Positions 5,402 to 59,884 of a stretch of DNA of 64,000 nt are shown here, one piece after another. The stretch is from the NCBI GenBank assembly GCA_964230645.1, contig CAXRHT010000002.1, positions 640,001 through 704,000 on the forward strand. The letters run 5' to 3'. Position 1 is the first letter of the stretch; every line of letters starts with the position of its first letter. The notes under the pieces are model-generated. The model made no database searches. It was not told the DNA's origin and saw only the letters and a program-made list of their open reading frames with translations. The stretch is from Bdellovibrionales bacterium (GTDB lineage Bacteria; Bdellovibrionota; Bdellovibrionia; Bdellovibrionales; JAGQZY01). Both the position numbers and the translations under genes were made by a program.

Positions 5402-5654
5402 GATGACCTCTCTTGTGTTAGATTCTTTGTTGCTGGCAGAAAAGGCATCATTCATAGCCCACCCCACCTATTTTCTTAAACTTGATATAAAAGTCCCACC
5501 ACAGATCTCAATTATCAAGAACCGATTGGCTTGTGCCAGGCGTTAGCCCCCAAAAACTTCACTAATAAAAGGGATTTATGACACTCATACTAGCCCTTCG
5601 GAGAGGTTTCAAACCTTTGGTCTAGCTAGCAAAGGGAGCCCCTCTATCCCCTAT

Positions 5655-6563
5655 TTATTTGATTTTTGAGATCTTAGCATCGCCTGAGAGGCTGGAGAAT
5701 TTGATTTTATTGGCTTTGCCTTTGCTCACACCAAAATCATTCACAAGCTCTCCGGTCATGGAATTAAAATTAACGTCCACTTGCGATTCACTGGGAATCT
5801 CCAAGGTAAAGTCCCCTGAAACCGATTCAAAATCAATTTCCGGGTTTTGCAGGCTTGCTTTTAGCAAGGTGTCGCCCGAAACAGAAGTGAAGTGACCCTT
5901 TTTAAGAGTTTGAATTTCAAAATCACTATCACCGCTGACTGTTTCAACGGTGATCTCCTCTCCCGCACTCTTTTTGACCTTCAGGTCCCCTGAAACATTG
6001 GCCACATTCATCTTTTTAAAACGAAGATCATTGGCGTAAAGATCAGCACTCACGGAATTAAACTCAAGAGTTTTAAAATTATGATCGGTCGGAAACTCGA
6101 TAATTAAAGTGAGATTACGATCCTCATCTCCAGAAATTTTCTTAGCCAATTCCTTCATGGTGGAAAGACCTTTAAATTCCTTTTTTTCCGGTGATTTAAT
6201 TTCCAAAGTTTTTGATCGAACGGACACTTCAAACCAATCGGAGAGTTTCTCTCCGTCGTTCTTATAATGACTACCCTCTCCAATCAGAGAAACAATAATG
6301 TTTTTACTCTCAGCACTATTCATTTTCACTTTCATTGGAAGATAGGTGGCAAAGCTTAAACTCTCCACCGATCGAGGCTCAAAATTCTCACTGATTTTGA
6401 CCTCTATGATTTCTGTTTCTTTAGTGGCTGACTCTTCTGCATTTTCGGTAGCTTGGGCCTGAGTCGTTCCAATCTGGATGGAGTCCATATTATAGAATTG
6501 ATAAGTGTAGACCATCACCACTGCGACAAGAATTAAGAACCAAGGCTGCCTAAAAACTTTCAT
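5655..6563 (-). CDS. DUF4097 / putative adhesin beta-strand-repeat protein
   Basis: N-terminal TM segment; repeated (S/T)VSGD motifs. Confidence 0.8.
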   Translation of the reverse strand: MKVFRQPWFLILVAVVMVYTYQFYNMDSIQIGTTQAQATENAEESATKETEIIEVKISENFEPRSVESLSFATYLPMKVKMNSAESKNIIVSLIGEGSHYKNDGEKLSDWFEVSVRSKTLEIKSPEKKEFKGLSTMKELAKKISGDEDRNLTLIIEFPTDHNFKTLEFNSVSADLYANDLRFKKMNVANVSGDLKVKKSAGEEITVETVSGDSDFEIQTLKKGHFTSVSGDTLLKASLQNPEIDFESVSGDFTLEIPSESQVDVNFNSMTGELVNDFGVSKGKANKIKFSSLSGDAKISKIK

Positions 6564-6709
6564 AAAGTCTCCTCTAAGTAGAAAATCACTTGAAACTCAC
6601 TCAAAACCCCTTCCACCGAGATAATTAAAAAAACGGGGCTGCATTGAGCCAAAAACTCATTGGAGCATTGACATATTACGTAAAGCGTTAGAAAGTCAAC
6701 GCTTTCCGT

Positions 6710-6786
6710 GGCGGGGTAGCTCAGCTGGTTAGAGCACCGGAATCATAATCCGGGTGTCGGGGGTTCAAGTCCCTCTCCCGCTACCA
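6710..6786 (+). tRNA. tRNA-Met (CAT), elongator type
   Basis: Cloverleaf GGCGGGG.../TCCCGCT-A-CCA; anticodon stem CCGGA/TCCGG with loop ATCATAA; T-loop TTCAAGT; TTGACA upstream at 6668. Confidence 0.93.
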
Positions 6787-6934
6787 TTAAAATTTCTCTA
6801 AAAAACCAATTCGACTCAAAAACCGGAATCCCCGTATACCCGGCACCTGGTATACCCGTATCCCATTCCGTAATCGGTATACAGACTCGGTAGATTCGCC
6901 CTTTGACTCCTGCTCAATAGAAAAACTTGCCCGC

Positions 6935-7033
6935 TCCGAAGTCGTAGCTATTGCCTACGAACACCATGAAAACATTCTCGGACAAGTCTTCCCGAGGCAA
7001 ATGCCGAGCAAAAGAATGAATCCTATGGGGCGG
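6935..7033 (+). pseudogene. Remnant of an HD-GYP (c-di-GMP phosphodiesterase-like) domain
   Basis: Translates SEVVAIAYEHHENILGQVFPRQMPSKRMNPMGR, resembling HHExxxGxGYP...P..R; no start codon found upstream in frame. Confidence 0.5.
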
Positions 7034-7092
7034 TGTAAAAAAATGGGACTACCTTTGCATTGTCATTCTGAGCCTTTGTCATTTTAAGTCAT

Positions 7093-7187
7093 TGTCATTC
7101 TGAGCGTAGCGAAGAATCTATCTCCACTGAGTCCGCATTATCAAACCGAGTCCTCAGTAAAGGTCCTTCGCTACGCTCAGGACGACA
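7093..7187. repeat. 95-bp palindromic REP/MITE-like element, copy 1
   Basis: Terminal arms TGTCATTCTGAGCGTAGCGAAGAATCT / AGGTCCTTCGCTACGCTCAGGACGACA; same-length inverted copy at 59651-59745. Confidence 0.9.
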
Positions 7188-7227
7188 GGTTCACACGACA
7201 GGTTTCGATCTTTACAGCTTATAATAG

Positions 7228-7259
7228 AAAAAAAGCCCTAGTGATTCACTAGAGCTTTT
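7228..7259 (-). terminator. Intrinsic terminator
   Basis: A-tract-GCCCTAGTGA-t-TCACTAGAGC-TTTT. Confidence 0.7.
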
Positions 7260-7296
7260 CTATCTCGCTTTAAATAACTACCAAATATAATTCCGA

Positions 7297-7839
7297 CTAG
7301 TTCTGCGAGTACACAACGCAAGTTTGCTCTTCAACTTCCCCGTTGTCTTTAGTCTTCCAACCTTTATAGGTATAACCACCCTCTTGGGTGGGAGTTTTAC
7401 TTACTTTTAACGTGATGTTTAGAGGTGTTCCACTGGCAAAGCCCGTTTGTGTCATGGCCATTTCCAATGCCCCCTCTTCACTGAGATCTTTCACCTTTAC
7501 TCCATTGAGTCGAGTGGTGGTGGCATCTTTGTAGATCGCCTGCTCGGCCTGTGGGAAATCGTCGAGTGAAACTTCGATGCTAGAAATTTTGCATAACAGA
7601 ACATTATTTTGAACCACCTGACCAATATTCATCAACTGCTTTTCCATCTCTTCTTTAGAGCCATCAATATTTAATTGATTGAGCGCATTTAAGACAGCCG
7701 AGTCATCACAATCTTGAGAGATTTCTTCGTAGGCTTCGGTGGGCTGACAAACCATTCCGTATTTTGAGGAAAAGTTGCTAACGTCTGCAAAAGACAAAGC
7801 CGGTGCCATCACCAGCAATAGAGAGATTATTGTTTTCAT
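7297..7839 (-). CDS. Secreted hypothetical protein
   Basis: Start moved to MKTIISLLL (AAGGA RBS); signal peptide ALSFA|D. Confidence 0.75.
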   Translation of the reverse strand: MKTIISLLLVMAPALSFADVSNFSSKYGMVCQPTEAYEEISQDCDDSAVLNALNQLNIDGSKEEMEKQLMNIGQVVQNNVLLCKISSIEVSLDDFPQAEQAIYKDATTTRLNGVKVKDLSEEGALEMAMTQTGFASGTPLNITLKVSKTPTQEGGYTYKGWKTKDNGEVEEQTCVVYSQN

Positions 7840-7943
7840 GGAATTCCTTTCTGTTTTCATTGGTTTTACCAAATATTGGTCCAAATCATAGAAGCCCAGA
7901 AATTTTTACACCTCTCTCCTCTTTTCTTGATCAAAAACTGGAC

Positions 7944-7973
7944 AAAAAAAGCCCCGAATTTTCATTCGGGGCT
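7944..7973 (-). terminator. Intrinsic terminator
   Basis: A7-GCCCCGAAT-loop-ATTCGGGGC. Confidence 0.75.
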
Positions 7974-8029
7974 AGGATATGGTGAGAGAGTTATTGCTTG
8001 ATTAGGATTGGCCCAATGCCAATCAATTA

Positions 8030-9040
8030 TTAATGTACTACCACGTTACAGTTAGAAGGCTGTTTTGAAAGCCACGCCAAAAACTTTTCTCTAAAAGCTT
8101 CATGGTTGCTTACTCGAACACTAGCATGACAGCCGGGTGAACCTTCGATACTTTTACCGTCGAGAGTTGTTTTTCCGATGGTAACAACATCAATCGGCAT
8201 ATATTCACAACGATACATTTGTTCTACAAATTTTACCGCTTCCATATCAGCTAAAAGAGAGCTATCAATTCTTTTCCCGTCAAGATGCTTAAAGCAAATG
8301 CGTCCTGTTTGGAATGACTGGCGTTCACTACCGTGTACTCGTAAAACACCATCAGTATTAACAATTTTAAACTCACGCTCAGTCTTCGGAGCCACAGGAC
8401 GTGGAAGGCTCGAACCATCTTGGTTTTGTTGAGGTCTTGAATAGAGATGAGTGTTTTTAGTCTCATGGTAGTAGAAAGCTAATATGTCACTATCCCCACC
8501 ATTGTGGCAGTCGGCATTTTCAAGTAGACCACTTACAATCTCATCAAGTTTCGCTTCAAGAGTTTCGGCCCCTTTGTCACTCATTAGAGGAGAACTCTGA
8601 CCATCGCTGCGTCGAACATAAACGGTTTCTTTTTTATCACCACGAGTCAGTTCAATTTGGTTGTAGCCTCCATCAATACGAATACCATCAAGCTTTGGAA
8701 TGAGTTCATCGTTTTCAACAATTGAGATCACTTTTGCATAATCTTTAGCGTCGACTTTTCCTGTCATCTTACACTCAGGAATATCGAGCTCTGCTTTTAC
8801 TTCCCCACTTTTAATAACACTCATAGTGAGATCAATTTTGTAATTGGGTTGAGGACCATACCATCCACCAACAAAGTATCTAACATTGTCGACGTCTCCA
8901 ATATATAAGTTGGTCTCTTTTTTGTCCTCATCCGTCTCCTCAGACACAGTCAACACATCATCGTCTTCAGTGAATGTAACTTTACAGTTAGTGATTGATA
9001 AACAAAGTAGAATAAAGAATAGAGTCTTTAAGACTTTCAT
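8030..9040 (-). CDS. Hypothetical lipoprotein
   Basis: MKVLKTLFFILLCLSITNC lipobox; AAGGAG RBS. Confidence 0.75.
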   Translation of the reverse strand: MKVLKTLFFILLCLSITNCKVTFTEDDDVLTVSEETDEDKKETNLYIGDVDNVRYFVGGWYGPQPNYKIDLTMSVIKSGEVKAELDIPECKMTGKVDAKDYAKVISIVENDELIPKLDGIRIDGGYNQIELTRGDKKETVYVRRSDGQSSPLMSDKGAETLEAKLDEIVSGLLENADCHNGGDSDILAFYYHETKNTHLYSRPQQNQDGSSLPRPVAPKTEREFKIVNTDGVLRVHGSERQSFQTGRICFKHLDGKRIDSSLLADMEAVKFVEQMYRCEYMPIDVVTIGKTTLDGKSIEGSPGCHASVRVSNHEAFREKFLAWLSKQPSNCNVVVH

Positions 9041-9222
9041 AATTGCTCCTTAGTATTTTTTGGCTTTACCGACGTACAACTTTAAAATAGCCGTTGATTT
9101 GACTCTTACAGATTCTCATCATGAGGGAGCTAAAGAAATCCACTTATTTGCAAAAGGGATTTTCAAGAGTTTTTAAGCAGTTAGAGACTCATCACACAAA
9201 TTCTTCAAGAGACTTCGTCTCA

Positions 9223-57003: not shown

Positions 57004-57510
57004 ATGGTTAGCCAAAAAACTGTTTTAAAATACAGCGATCACCGCTGGATGGGCCTTTTCTTTATTGGTGCTGCACTGCTGGCTTATTTCCTTATGGATT
57101 CTCACCAATCACTTGTATTGAAGGCAGCTGTTGTTCTTGGGTGCGGCATCATTGGCTTACGCTTTGTAATTGTGAGATCACAGGATCGGTTGTGGCTTGA
57201 AGAAAATCAACTGTGTTATTCTCAGGTTCGAGGTAAAAAACGAAAAAGTGGCCAAGTCCCTATCGACAGCATAAAAGCTGTTCAGGTTGTATTTTCTGGT
57301 AATCGAAGTAGTGGTCAATCCTGGGTGAGACATAATTGTTTTGTTGTGACCACCGATGGAAAACGCATCAAATTACCCGATGGGATCAAATACTGTAGCT
57401 ACCAATCAAAAGATACGGATCTTAGCTTCCTAGTAGACCCTTTAAAAAAAATAAATCCGAACATATACTTAGAAATTGATGATAGCGCCGTAATGAGTCA
57501 ATCGAAATAG
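57004..57510 (+). CDS. 2-TM membrane protein with bacterial PH-like domain
   Basis: Two TM helices, then a beta-rich domain (IPIDSIKAV-like segment). Confidence 0.55.
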   Translation: MVSQKTVLKYSDHRWMGLFFIGAALLAYFLMDSHQSLVLKAAVVLGCGIIGLRFVIVRSQDRLWLEENQLCYSQVRGKKRKSGQVPIDSIKAVQVVFSGNRSSGQSWVRHNCFVVTTDGKRIKLPDGIKYCSYQSKDTDLSFLVDPLKKINPNIYLEIDDSAVMSQSK

Positions 57511-57521
57511 AAAGGATTACT

Positions 57522-57746
57522 TCAGTCTTGGCGGGAGCCTAGAGCTTGATCTTTTAAGGGATCCTTGGGGTGGCGAACGACGTTTTCGTTAATAAACTCT
57601 GAGTCTTCCTCAGACTGAGCTTTCGGAGAAACGGACACCTCTTTAATAAAAGAAGGTAATTCTGGGTGCTCAAGACTCATATGTTCTTTGGCCTCTGAGC
57701 GTTTCTCAAAAATCTCCTCACATTTTCCACACTGATAAGCTGTCAT
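57522..57746 (-). CDS. Small C2H2 zinc-finger protein
   Basis: YQCGKCEEIFEKRSEAKEHMSLEH = C-x2-C-x12-H-x4-H; purine-rich RBS before ATG 57746. Confidence 0.75.
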   Translation of the reverse strand: MTAYQCGKCEEIFEKRSEAKEHMSLEHPELPSFIKEVSVSPKAQSEEDSEFINENVVRHPKDPLKDQALGSRQD

Positions 57747-57985
57747 TGATCCCTTCCTTTTGGAGTTACTGAGCTTTGCAATCACACACCCGGTTTGTAC
57801 CCTTTAACCTGGGTAGAAGAATTGATCCTTCTTTGTCATCTGATTGTAAAAAACTACAATTTTTAATCTTTTTAGCTGAATGCCCGTTAAATGAAGTGTC
57901 TCCTCGGCCCTAGAGACTGAAATCATTAGCCCATCCTGCTCCTATTTGATAAAACTAGAGAGTAACTACCCTAAGGAGAGTTTTT

Positions 57986-58591
57986 ATTCGATTAAAAAAG
58001 ACCCGCTCTGTTTCTATTACGCCTATTTTAATAATAAACGGTGCTGTTTTTATGATGTGGATGCTTGCCTCCCCTTCCACGGAGTTCATGAAAGAGCATT
58101 TCTTAGTGAGTTGGACCGCCCTGATGGACGGACGCTATTGGACTCTTCTGACCTCGGTCTTCTCTCACAATATGTTTTTTCATATTTTTCTAAATATGTT
58201 TGTTCTTTTAAGCTTTGGACCACCACTGGAAAGTCGCTTAGGCACGAGACGTTTTGTAATGTTTTATATCGTCGCTGGACTGATCTCCTCGTTTGCTCAT
58301 GCAGCGGTGTCTGAGTTTTTACTCGGCCAACCAGGGCTGCCAGCTCTAGGTGCTTCGGGCTCTATTGCTGGAGTCATCACTGTGTTTGCTTTTATTTTCC
58401 CTCGCGCTAAAATCCTGGTTATGGGGATTATTCCTGTCCCGGCACTCATGGGAGTTTTATTACTCATTGGTATTGATCTTTGGGGGTTAATGAGTCAAAT
58501 GCAAGGCTCAGGACTCCCCATCGGCCATGGGGCTCATTTGGGCGGAGCCTTCACGGGCGTTCTTTACTATGTTTGGCTGCGGATAAGGTAA
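57986..58591 (+). CDS. Rhomboid family intramembrane serine protease (probable ATT start; first ATG at 58052)
   Basis: WTLLTSVFSH..FFHIFLNM, GASGS, AHLGG; first TM segment is encoded upstream of the ATG. Confidence 0.9.
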   Translation: MRLKKTRSVSITPILIINGAVFMMWMLASPSTEFMKEHFLVSWTALMDGRYWTLLTSVFSHNMFFHIFLNMFVLLSFGPPLESRLGTRRFVMFYIVAGLISSFAHAAVSEFLLGQPGLPALGASGSIAGVITVFAFIFPRAKILVMGIIPVPALMGVLLLIGIDLWGLMSQMQGSGLPIGHGAHLGGAFTGVLYYVWLRIR

Positions 58592-58600
58592 CGGAACATT

Positions 58601-59476
58601 ATGGCACACGATCACGATCATCCCACTGATAGTAAAGCCCTCTTTTGGGCCATCCTTGTAAATCTAGTATTAACAGTGGTTCAAGTGATTGGTGGTCTGC
58701 TTTCTGGAAGTTTATCCTTAGTCGCAGACGCTCTTCATAATCTTAGTGATGCGGGTGCTTTAGTTATCGCTTATATTGCTCAGAAAGTTTCAGGTCTTGA
58801 AGCTAATGAACAAATGACCTTTGGATACGGCCGAGCGCAAATCCTAGGAGCATTGATTAATAGCGTGACCCTAGTGGTTGTGGGAATTTATTTATTTTAC
58901 GAAGCTTGGACTCGTTTTAAGGACCCTCAACCCGTCGACGGTTGGCTTGTTATAGTGGTCGCATCCGTAGCACTTGTGGTCGATCTTTTCACCGCTTGGC
59001 TCACCCATGCCGGCTCAAAAGAGAATATTAATATGAGAGCCGCCTTTATCCACAATCTCTCTGATGCCATGGCCTCAGTGGCTGTCATTGTTTCTGGGAT
59101 TCTCATTCTCAATTTCAAAATATACTGGGTGGATCTTTTAGCCACAGTCCTTATCTCAGTCTATATTCTTTACCATTCGCTAGGACTGATAAACTCTTGT
59201 ATTCGGACTCTTATGCAAGCGGTTCCTGAAGGAATGGACCGCACCGAAGTCATAAATAAAATTAGAGAGGTTAAAGGAATACGAGACGTCCACCATGTGC
59301 ACATCTGGGCTGTGCATGAAAAGTTCATTTCTTTAGAGGCTCATATCGTAGTGGATCATATGACTTTAGAGGAAATTGAAGCCATAAAAGCAGAAACCAA
59401 GTTATTATTAAAAAAGGAATTCCACGTAAAGCACTCCACCCTTGAGTTTGAGCTTTTTGGTCTCAAAAACTGCTAA
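58601..59476 (+). CDS. Cation diffusion facilitator (CzcD/ZitB-like Zn/Co/Cd efflux)
   Basis: SLSLVADALHNLSD, TFGYGR, NMRAAFIHNLSD, HHVHIW. Confidence 0.93.
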   Translation: MAHDHDHPTDSKALFWAILVNLVLTVVQVIGGLLSGSLSLVADALHNLSDAGALVIAYIAQKVSGLEANEQMTFGYGRAQILGALINSVTLVVVGIYLFYEAWTRFKDPQPVDGWLVIVVASVALVVDLFTAWLTHAGSKENINMRAAFIHNLSDAMASVAVIVSGILILNFKIYWVDLLATVLISVYILYHSLGLINSCIRTLMQAVPEGMDRTEVINKIREVKGIRDVHHVHIWAVHEKFISLEAHIVVDHMTLEEIEAIKAETKLLLKKEFHVKHSTLEFELFGLKNC

Positions 59477-59511
59477 TTCAAAATTTAGATTAATTTTCTT
59501 TCGTCCCTTCG

Positions 59512-59664
59512 TTTAATGTCGTCCCTGAAGGTTAAATGTTGTCCTGGCCTTTTAACGTCGTCCTATCCTTTTAACGTCGTCCTATCCTTCTAACGTCGTC
59601 CTATCCATTTAACGTCGTACTGATTGTTTAATGTCGTCCTGATTTTTTAATGTCGTCCTGAGCG
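59512..59664. repeat. Tandem array of ~8 x 19-nt units running into the REP-like element
   Basis: Core TTTAA(C/T)GTCGTCCT plus 5 variable nt, at 59512, 59532, 59551, 59570, 59589, 59608, 59627, 59646. Confidence 0.9.
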
Positions 59665-59745
59665 TAGCGAAGGACCTTTGCCGAGGGCTGTGATTGATAA
59701 TGCGGGGCCAGTGGCGATAGATTCTTCGCTACGCTCAGAATGACA
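59651..59745. repeat. 95-bp palindromic REP/MITE-like element, copy 2 (inverted relative to copy 1)
   Basis: Arms identical to the reverse complement of 7093-7187; substitutions confined to the central part. Confidence 0.9.
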
Positions 59746-59884
59746 ATGGGTACGCTTAGAATGACAAAACGAAACACTACATCCAGTTTCGTCTTTTTAT
59801 TTCTGTAACGGTCATTTTTTTTAAAAGTTTTTTTGGAGTGGAAAGAGGCATTGATTTTATGCCTCTCTCAAATAGGATGGGAAT

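Follow-up and report, generated by a model that had tools for sequence, protein, structure and literature searches.

The 64-kb window analysed here (the whole stretch of 64,000 nt, taken from contig CAXRHT010000002.1 of a Bdellovibrionales bacterium) carries two inverted copies of a 95-bp palindromic element, and outside each of the four ends of these copies the terminal motif of the element is repeated in tandem together with adjoining DNA. This raises the question of what such stuttered ends are, that is, whether they are genuine, whether they belong to these two copies only or to a wider class of sequences, and by which process they could have been produced. The survey of the entire genome gives the answer that the stuttered ends are genuine, that they occur generally on a repeat of a known kind, and that they are specific to it. 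The unit concerned is a 25-nt hairpin-forming sequence, hereafter called the arm, two of which lie head to head in the 95-bp element, and which by its architecture resembles the CGTC/TGTC-tagged repetitive extragenic palindromes (REPs) described by Di Nocera, De Gregorio and Rocco (2013, BMC Genomics 14:522; PMC3733652).

The genome of origin is assembled to 3.78 Mb in three contigs (C1 to C3). When up to three substitutions were allowed, 199 copies of the arm, GTCRTYYTGAGCGNAGCGAARGAYC, were found, which group into 91 loci. A pattern that also admits 26- and 27-nt variants gave 223 exact copies, or 283 with up to three substitutions, and neither search found any copy in the shuffled genome. 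Junction iteration was scored as a local tandem-match segment that overlaps the 5′ tag of the arm and lies above the 99th percentile of 400 random sites. By this measure, iterations spanning the junction were present at 143 of the 223 exact arms (64%) and at 108 of the 199 arms of the 25-nt scan, and they occurred at all three arm lengths (97/158, 35/50 and 11/15). A stricter criterion retained 104 of the 199 arms, compared with 0.2% of 2000 random sites, and a further criterion scored 128 of the 199 arms as iterated versus 2 of 199 in the control. The first-pass annotation had described the reiteration of an element end plus locus-specific flank for the two window copies. This is a general phenomenon, and the finding that would have spoken against it, namely that other copies lack iterations, is not what the 143 iterated arms show.

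The iterations are also specific to the arms. Among the feet of other perfect hairpins (stem of at least 9 bp, loop of 3-8 nt) only 1 of 484 was iterated, and sites with the apex motif of the arm, GCGN(1-2)AGC, that lie outside arms were iterated in none of 96 cases outside long open reading frames (ORFs) and in 2 of 1603 cases inside long ORFs. The same arms were iterated in 5 of 46 cases in three genomes of a related genus and in 15 of 100 cases at 80 loci of other phyla, the clear distant examples being a Nitrospirales metagenome-assembled genome (MAG; 19 nt × 3) and a Chloroflexota MAG (19 nt × 3, on both sides). These arm counts, set against the controls, mean that iteration is a property of this kind of arm, which recurs across phyla and is unusually frequent in the present genome. 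They also provide a natural contrast between 64% of arms iterated here and 11-15% elsewhere with the same arms.

The DNA fold of the arm consists of an unpaired 5′ (T/C)GTC tag (the GTC being fixed by the search pattern), a 5-bp lower stem, a 2 × 2 internal loop of tandem G·A, two G-C pairs and a GNA triloop; the stem thus has nine positions including two central G·A mismatches, and it is kept by compensatory changes. That is, 167 of the 199 copies belong to four types that differ only by changes preserving the pairing of the arm's own lower stem: type a (ATTCT/AGAAT, 55 copies), type c (ATCCT/AGGAT, 54), type d (GTCTT/AAGAC, 40) and type b (GTCCT/AGGAC, 18). The stem starts with an A-T and then a T-A pair in types a and c, and with a G-C and then a T-A pair in types b and d. 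The base before GTC is T in 46/55 a, 16/18 b, 34/54 c and 39/40 d arms. At the other end, every arm has C at position 24, and 97-100% of the arms have T at position 25; CCA is absent. The 25- and 27-nt arms have a 3-nt loop, GNA, and the 26-nt arms a 4-nt loop, GNNA; the loop length would be 5 nt with the closing C-G counted in. The apex reads GCGNAGC in 25-nt arms, GCGNNAGC in 26-nt arms and GGCGNAGCC, with one added G-C pair, in 27-nt arms. All 223 exact arms carry this mini-hairpin apex, as the pattern imposes, and all four bases occur at N, the commonest cores being GAGCGAAGC (62), GAGCGTAGC (53), GAGGCGAAGCC (41), GAGCGCAGC (30), GAGCGGAGC (13) and GAGCGATAGC (6). The loop base N had no clear effect on iteration (A 40/62, T 31/53, C 14/30, G 11/13).

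The consensus GCGNAGC/GCGNNAGC, found at every arm apex, is that of the mini-hairpin DNA of Hirao and co-workers (2026 review, PMC13037366). The passages of that article drawn on here describe such DNA as extraordinarily stable, exonuclease-resistant and beyond conventional energy parameters, and report polymerase pausing sites in dITP sequencing runs. They name the phage G4, St-1 and alpha3 origins, where the motif sits at priming sites, as well as ssiA and N4 promoters, and mention no dispersed genomic repeat family. The nearest-neighbour DNA energies of single arms (ViennaRNA) were -1.9 and -3.5 kcal/mol (z -0.26 and -1.09); such weak values fit the report, in the same source, that standard parameters are unable to explain mini-hairpin stability. 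The structural reading of the arm indicates single-stranded DNA as the active form, and the relevant form would accordingly be single-stranded DNA, not RNA.

The arms occur mostly in head-to-head pairs, 75 of which account for 150 of the 223 arms, with a gap of 2-4 nt in 42 pairs and of 41-46 nt in 31. Family 1, to which the window element belongs, comprises 31 doublets made up of an a-type arm, 41-46 nt, and a second arm. Of the 31 second arms, 15 are of type b, 4 of type c and 2 of type a, the other 10 being non-standard variants. Family 2 is a 53-bp palindrome of c and d arms with a 2-4 nt gap, present in 42 copies, and additional families are built on 27- and 26-nt arms. Doublet arms are usually of unlike types, and the mismatches of the long hairpin fall where each arm's own hairpin is perfect, which means that selection acts on the single arm. 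Iteration was found at 97 of 150 doublet arms and at 44 of 73 other arms. Moreover, its presence at the two ends of the 75 doublets was independent (Fisher p 0.80), and just 5 of the 32 doublets iterated at both ends had the same period at both. The unit that acts is the single 25-nt arm instead of the 95-bp palindrome that had been put forward in the first-pass annotation. Finally, a classical miniature transposable element (MITE) with terminal inverted repeats makes a target-site duplication of fixed length, whereas direct-repeat matches around 73 doublets, at offsets 0-3, equalled those of a shuffled-partner control. The element thus lacks a target-site duplication and is not a classical MITE, which agrees with the annotation.

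The two copies in the window comprise the following features.

7058..7092, plus strand: left terminal iteration of copy 1, two partial 16-nt units in tandem with the full arm
7093..7119, plus strand: a-type arm (REP unit) of copy 1, with a T + GTC tag and the stem ATTCTGAGC/GCGAAGAAT
7120..7160, no strand: centre of copy 1, 41 nt, conserved among the 31 family 1 doublets (anchored listing)
7161..7187, minus strand: b-type arm (REP unit) of copy 1, stem GTCCT.../...AGGAC
7188..7204, minus strand: right terminal iteration of copy 1, one partial unit, period 13
59494..59650, plus strand: left terminal iteration of copy 2, about 8 units of 19 nt (GTCGTCCT... and an 11-nt spacer)
59651..59677, plus strand: b-type arm of copy 2, from the sequence and an inverted-repeat search
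59678..59718, no strand: centre of copy 2, 41 nt, reverse complement of the copy 1 centre, diverged
59719..59745, minus strand: a-type arm of copy 2, from the sequence and an inverted-repeat search
59746..59767, minus strand: right terminal iteration of copy 2, one partial unit, period 21

In both copies the inverted arms (7093-7119/7161-7187 and 59651-59677/59719-59745) are 27 nt long, 85% complementary and 41 nt apart, and the two copies, one of them taken as its reverse complement, agree at 89.5% of the 95 nt. Folded as DNA, the 95 nt gave -21 kcal/mol (z -5.98) for copy 1, in which the 41-nt centre prolongs the long hairpin imperfectly, and -23.9 kcal/mol (z -5.35) for copy 2. The a-type arm of copy 1 has the central tandem G·A in its stem, a GTA loop and the tail C-T. 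To its left, each partial unit consists of the tag and first 11-13 nt of an a-type arm followed by a 3-nt spacer, and the array was detected both by Tandem Repeats Finder (TRF; 7058-7105, period 16 nt × 3.0, score 68) and by a repeat search. The right iteration of copy 1, ACGACAGGTT at 7182-7191 and again at 7195-7204 (spacing 13), was read directly from the sequence; it is the weakest of the four, only 6 nt of arm being re-copied, and its segment score of 10 at period 13 just reaches the 99th percentile of random sites without exceeding it. The left array of copy 2 was again recovered by TRF (59541-59660, 19 nt × 6.3, score 128) and by the repeat search, the count of about 8 units having been made by eye and including decayed units from 59494. 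Its arm-proximal units show the strongest likeness to the arm, and in a walk of the 25-nt arm types only it ties with a locus at C3:290338 for the most units (6 each). To the right of copy 2, TACGCT[C/T]AGAATGACAA occurs twice (17-mers at 59730 and 59751, spacing 21), the arm being re-copied as far as its loop, with a segment score of 14 and a right end at arm position 14. Both left arrays top the 19 TRF rows of the window by score. The 95-bp copies, inverted arms and four terminal iterations of the first-pass annotation are thus all borne out by TRF, the repeat search and direct reading.

Separately assembled contigs agree with this. Logan contigs of four sequencing runs (X1 to X4, all from one study, of which X1 and X2 may be source samples) reproduced the arrays with 0 differences across 57500-59678 (in part, down to 59041 in X3 and 58040 in X4), over the left side of copy 1 (6757/6759-7119 in X1 and X2, 6889-7119 in X4) and over its right side (7159-9000 in X1 and X2, to 8286 in X3). 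Therefore, the terminal arrays are not an assembly artefact, a possibility that had been raised at the outset. The Logan contigs show no unit-number variant, rare length variants being invisible in contigs. A DNA search with 5600-9100 in 12 same-genus genomes gave just a tRNA and weak pieces, the flanking proteins being 45-49% identical; that is, the same-genus species representatives are too distant for a filled and an empty site to be paired.

The re-copied piece is well delimited on one side. Of 108 arrays, 92 have their right boundary between arm positions 8 and 16, with peaks at 10-11 and 14, while 6 have it below position 8 and 10 beyond 16; in 4 of the 108 it lies at 40-59, the unit then holding a whole or nearly whole arm. 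The span begins immediately beneath the mini-hairpin and takes in its loop, and the 3′ half-stem is almost never included. Orphan halves near arms are distributed in the same sense (348 5′ halves versus 60 3′ halves). The left boundary varies between 3 and 10 nt on the outer side of the tag. Most periods are of 13-28 nt and a few reach 40; the modal period is 17 in type a, 22 in type c and 20 in type d. Among 104 arrays, 40 have one unit, 21 two, 28 three, 12 four, one has five and two have six. Within the 43 arrays of at least three units, likeness to the arm declines from 10.37 through 9.84 to 9.19 of 11 positions at ranks 1 to 3, rank 1 being favoured by the selection rule, and in a profile the 11-nt unit core is far better kept than the spacers, which is partly forced by the selection window. 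Perfect multi-unit arrays exist, such as one of 19 nt × 5.5 at C2:432098-432242, and a perfect duplication of one or more units was counted at 24 arms, indicating that some iteration events are recent. The sequence scar thus records events at the repeat, about two thirds of arms having had their 5′ half and flank re-copied, almost always to the apex and at each end alone.

In family 1 the spacers differ from locus to locus, the 41-nt centre remains recognisably conserved, and the 220-nt flanks of the 31 doublets share no k-mer besides arm pieces. The family 1 arrays were therefore produced locally from the flank DNA.

Two kinds of unusual arrays were seen in addition. The longest arrays, which are also the most perfect, belong to a 27-nt arm variant (GTCRTCCTGAGGCGAAGCCGAAGGAYC); they have 5-8 units of 19-26 nt, all identical in some cases (C2:432098-432242, C1:143037-143192, C2:314738-314874 and C2:553935-554050). 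A whole or nearly whole arm lies inside the unit at C2:381725-381830 (39-nt period) and at C2:75025-75130 (27-nt period), the arm copy at the latter being without 5 nt between two AGCG direct repeats of the loop region.

The arm anatomy, the arm-specific iteration, the right boundary at the apex, the variable left boundary and the independence of doublet ends are all read directly from the genome. They require a process that is specific to arms, acts on each arm separately, is blind to the replication strand and can be repeated, and that copies from outside the tag up to the apex. As to the strand, iterated arms numbered 48/100 and 56/99 on the two strands (p 0.26), which gives no bias when the replication strand is assigned from the GC skew of the three unclosed contigs. 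The explanation that we favour, tentatively, is that the terminal iterations are scars of REP-specific abort-and-restart copying at the junction of flank and repeat. With the sense strand as the new strand, synthesis would enter the arm from outside and abort on top of the hairpin bearing the GCGNAGC mini-hairpin; the aborted end would then realign a few bases upstream of the tag, and the same 13-28 nt would be copied again. Once one extra unit is present, slipped-strand mispairing could expand and homogenise the array. The absence of a replication-strand bias fits a process that is possible whenever the sense strand is the new strand. In E. coli, BIME-dependent polymerase stalling sites have been described in vitro (BIMEs, bacterial interspersed mosaic elements; Ton-Hoang et al. 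2012; PMC3333891).

Several observations weigh against copying of this kind as a simple or complete explanation. Stalling at a generic hairpin is insufficient (1 of 484 other hairpin feet), and so is the mini-hairpin motif alone (0 of 96 and 2 of 1603 sites). A property specific to REPs, or a protein bound to them, must therefore contribute; this might be the mini-hairpin nested in the nine-position stem, or a protein recognising the arm. The far rarer iteration elsewhere (5/46 and 15/100) points to a trans factor or to age. The computed arm energies are weak, the special stability of the apex resting on the literature. Any microhomology at the original break is unreadable, older units lying upstream of nearly all 24 perfect arrays. 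Lastly, the type-specific modal periods and the shared spacers of family 2 mean that some units travel with the element and that not all are made locally. A variant of the abort-and-restart idea, in which a primase flap fixes the Okazaki 5′ end at the arm, was discarded, since it predicts iteration only where the sense strand is the lagging template, which was not seen.

Abort-and-restart copying and nick-prime-rejoin by a Y1 enzyme leave the same joint, so that sequence alone cannot separate them. In the latter case, the main rival, which we regard as possible but unlikely, a trans-acting Y1 HUH enzyme, one of two proteins of the genome that are similar to REP-associated tyrosine transposases (RAYTs), would make the arrays in the manner of model B of Ton-Hoang et al. 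for BIMEs. It would bind the folded single-stranded arm and nick near it, the 3′-OH would be extended, and the new strand would be nicked again and joined to the 5′-phosphotyrosine end, yielding one more junction unit. Such an enzyme would account for the restriction of iteration to REP arms, as opposed to other hairpins or the mini-hairpin motif, for the strong variation in frequency between genomes with the same arms, and for the lack of a target-site duplication in 73 doublets, as in single-strand transposition. There is also precedent, E. coli TnpAREP being reported to cleave variable sites around the REP and to perform strand transfer in vitro, with nick-prime-recleave tandem amplification proposed (PMC3333891). 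The first-pass annotation had suggested amplification by nicking or re-priming at the foot of the hairpin. Its amplification step thus has a published model for REP/BIME arrays in the same article, whereas its placement at the foot does not agree with a re-copied piece that ends at the apex.

Two intact Y1 HUH genes are indeed present (C2:1838144-1838794 and C2:1598732-1599394, encoding 216 and 220 aa). Their proteins carry the HUH and Tyr motifs and score 64.9 and 71.3 bits to NF047646 REP_Tyr_transpos, below its cut-off of 80, and their sole PDB match is TnpAREP (4ER8, E 0.0036). By eye, a tRNA-like sequence lies on the opposite strand directly behind the 216-aa gene (L001 2120-2215, on C2). 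No arm was found at any of 14 RAYT-like loci (the two of this genome and 12 in relatives, about 1.5 kb on each side); the 11-mer of the 5′ half occurred once each at 2 of the 14, not flanking the gene. RAYT-like genes are present in 30 of 41 genomes; 11 of the 12 arm-bearing genomes and 19 of the 29 lacking arms have them (Fisher p 0.13, kin not being independent). One genome (G006) has a 69%-identical Y1 orthologue and no arm, and three others (G015, G022 and G023) have 1-4 RAYT-like genes and little iteration. Furthermore, the breaks scatter between arm positions 8 and 16 and are not confined to one dinucleotide, and there is no lagging-strand bias. The passages of Di Nocera et al. 2013 considered here (PMC3733652) likewise know no transposase gene flanked by CGTC repeats. 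The trans-acting enzyme elsewhere in the genome that had been postulated for the element can thus not be tied to the arms. The enzyme families searched were Y1, IS110, TnpB zinc ribbon and GIY-YIG, and not the DDE families; IS110 and TnpB zinc ribbon gave no hit in this genome, and GIY-YIG gave one, in a 635-aa open frame. Twelve intervals between neighbouring arm loci contain 30 ORFs that are 110 aa or longer; judged by their first residues, and without a family-library scan, these resemble ordinary genes, and no transposase was noticed among them. The choice between pause-and-slip on the arms and Y1 cleavage makes the processing of such repeats a question that can be put to the test at the bench.

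A more speculative proposal, to which we assign a low probability, takes CGTC-type REPs to be selfish copies of a signal for initiation on single strands. Each arm would then serve for priming, or as a site of primosome type, in the manner of hairpin I of phage G4, and it would be read by universally conserved replication proteins of the host instead of a transposase. If true, this would explain the identical 25-mer in a dozen phyla, among the matches listed, without a linked enzyme. The stuttered ends would then be scars of initiation and re-copying that took place repeatedly, and possibly a nursery of new arms.

The partial copies could instead be kept as iteron-like sites for a putative protein recognising TGTCRTYYTGAG beside the hairpin. 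Such an arrangement would be comparable to the origins of HUH Rep systems, where direct repeats lie next to a hairpin, or to the subterminal repeats of Tn7/Mu-type ends. The 11-nt unit core is better conserved than the spacers (a pattern that is partly forced by the selection window), the periods cluster at 17-23 nt, or about two helical turns, and a feature of the same extent recurs in distant phyla. Sites kept for binding would fit poorly, though, with distal units that decay, with unit numbers of 1-6 and a single unit in 40 of 104 arrays, with periods of 13-40 that have no fixed phase, with two doublet ends that are uncorrelated, and with the 80 of 223 arms here and most arms elsewhere that have no iteration. 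We therefore consider this function improbable.

Slightly less probable again, as a general account, is that the iterations belong to the interior of a longer mobile element and are copied along with it instead of arising in place. For family 2 (c-3-d doublets) this holds in part: its d-side units have a 20-nt period and the spacer GAAAACAT in common across loci, several c-side units sharing GAGAATTGTTCAGA. In addition, an outer inverted repeat, CTGCTGTCCGGTGGATT, gave 29 matches with up to 3 mismatches, of which about 20 are no more than 160 nt away from arms and bracket the arrays and doublet. Some family 2 units thus travel with a longer composite element. For family 1, in contrast, the flanks share only arm-piece k-mers and the spacers differ at every locus while the centre stays conserved, and the four ends in the window have unlike periods (16, 13, 19 and 21). 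Examples of the composite in this genome are C3:523688-523932, C1:825777-825892, C3:273908-274043 and C2:1235072-1235309. No copy of the CTGCTGTCCGGTGGATT-bounded composite spans a gene-sized interval, and an autonomous parent was therefore not seen.

That the partial copies are remnants of nested insertions or decayed head-to-tail whole REPs is hardly credible, as this predicts equal numbers of 3′ and 5′ orphan halves, against the 60 and 348 counted, and independent insertions would not give units sharing spacer and endpoint within one array, even if a few units do hold a whole or nearly whole arm (e.g. at C2:381725 and C2:75025).

With regard to known systems, the present arms have in common with CGTC/TGTC-tagged REPs, as far as these are described in the cited parts of PMC3733652, a short palindrome that bears an unpaired tag at its 5′ foot ((C/T)GTC, with CCTC as a further variant in those REPs), a predominance of head-to-head dimers, often of two unlike arm types, and an occurrence in several phyla with no flanking transposase gene. 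There are differences as well. The tail of those REPs is mostly CCA whereas it is C-T here, and the arms have a GNA or GNNA mini-hairpin as loop and a central tandem G·A in the stem. In stem start and loop length the comparison is mixed, those REPs having an 8-9 bp stem that starts with A-T pairs and a loop of 4-5 nt, and the arms a stem of nine positions that starts with A-T in types a and c and with G-C in types b and d, and a loop of 3 or 4 nt, or 5 nt with the closing pair counted in. Whole REPs or dimers are reiterated with their flank in the published cases, whereas it is the tag and 5′ half-stem that are re-copied here. The resemblance is one of architecture, with no numbered family assigned. 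Given the common tag, head-to-head pairing and lack of a linked transposase, and the presence of the 25-mer in many phyla, the suggestion of an undescribed element family does not stand.

Like REPINs and BIMEs, which are built of GTAG-tagged REPs (Bertels and Rainey 2011, PMC3116915, for REPINs and RAYTs; PMC3333891 for BIMEs and TnpAREP), the doublets form an inverted long hairpin, have locus-specific linkers in their tandem units and, according to the parts of these sources used, share the lack of a target duplication. The tag is GTAG in the REPIN/RAYT system and (T/C)GTC here, and the RAYT gene is flanked by repeats there (REPtron), whereas 0 of 14 RAYT-like loci are flanked here. Tandem repeats of whole REPs, REPINs and BIMEs with flank are already on record in the passages drawn on (PMC3116915, PMC3733652, PMC3333891). 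The arrays described there consist of whole units with periods of about 70-190 bp, compared with the first 8-16 nt of an arm and periods of 13-28 nt in this genome. Tandem re-copies of the tag and 5′ half-stem bounded by the apex are not mentioned in the relevant parts of PMC3116915, PMC3733652, PMC3333891 and PMC6006769, a statement that concerns these four sources and not the whole literature. A literature search for the core 15-mer gave an unrelated match only. Elhai et al. in 2008 reportedly found, in Nostoc, hairpin-associated small dispersed repeats of 21-27 nt with short tandem repeats, which are not known to be related in sequence to the arms.

At the RNA level, Rfam at gathering thresholds found two tRNAs and nothing else in the window. 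The model RF02901 (AaHKsRNA41, Aggregatibacter small RNA 41) matched 7087-7262 on the plus strand with 42.9 bits (E 8e-9), well under its gathering threshold of 97, and the element is not a member. That model consists of a long hairpin with arms CUGAGC..CGAAG followed by a terminator, which suggests that a related REP doublet may underlie the AaHKsRNA41 family itself. A hairpin with flanking A and T runs at 7228-7262 separates copy 1 from the stop of a convergent 195-aa ORF (7297-7884, minus strand); it looks like the terminator of this ORF and would leave the element outside the transcription unit. An RNA-level function of the window copies was set aside, copy 1 lying beyond this putative terminator hairpin of the convergent gene, and a hammerhead-like reading of CUGA...GAA was rejected because the core does not fit.

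CGTC-tagged REPs are a large class of bacterial hairpin repeats without a known mobilising enzyme, as presented in the parts of PMC3733652 drawn on, and the present genome adds to this class a structural reading of the unit, with its tag, compensated stem, tandem G·A and GCGNAGC/GCGNNAGC mini-hairpin. The exact 25-mer was found in at least 128 stretches, and the matches listed include MAGs of Nitrospirae, Chloroflexota, Acidobacteriota, Bacteroidales, Omnitrophota, Planctomycetes, Verrucomicrobia, Clostridia, Saccharibacteria, Gracilibacteria, Bdellovibrionales and others. Across the 41 genomes compared the distribution is patchy, with 181 hits in the genome under study, 1-12 in 3 of 12 same-genus genomes, 7-76 in 5 of 5 genomes of another genus, and 29 genomes without arms.

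On the practical side, the arms give rise to spurious small ORFs and break short-read assemblies. A 49-aa ORF at 59628-59777 on the minus strand, for instance, spans copy 2 (...VILSVAKNL...LRYAQDD...). ORFs of this VILSVAKNL/LRYAQDD type are translation artefacts of arms, and in many genomes they have probably been annotated as hypothetical proteins. Within the present genome, arms are most crowded in the region C2:60000-490000, around the point at about 170 kb where the GC skew of contig C2 switches, the probable terminus, the counts per 100 kb in the first five bins of this contig being 10, 20, 12, 9 and 7.

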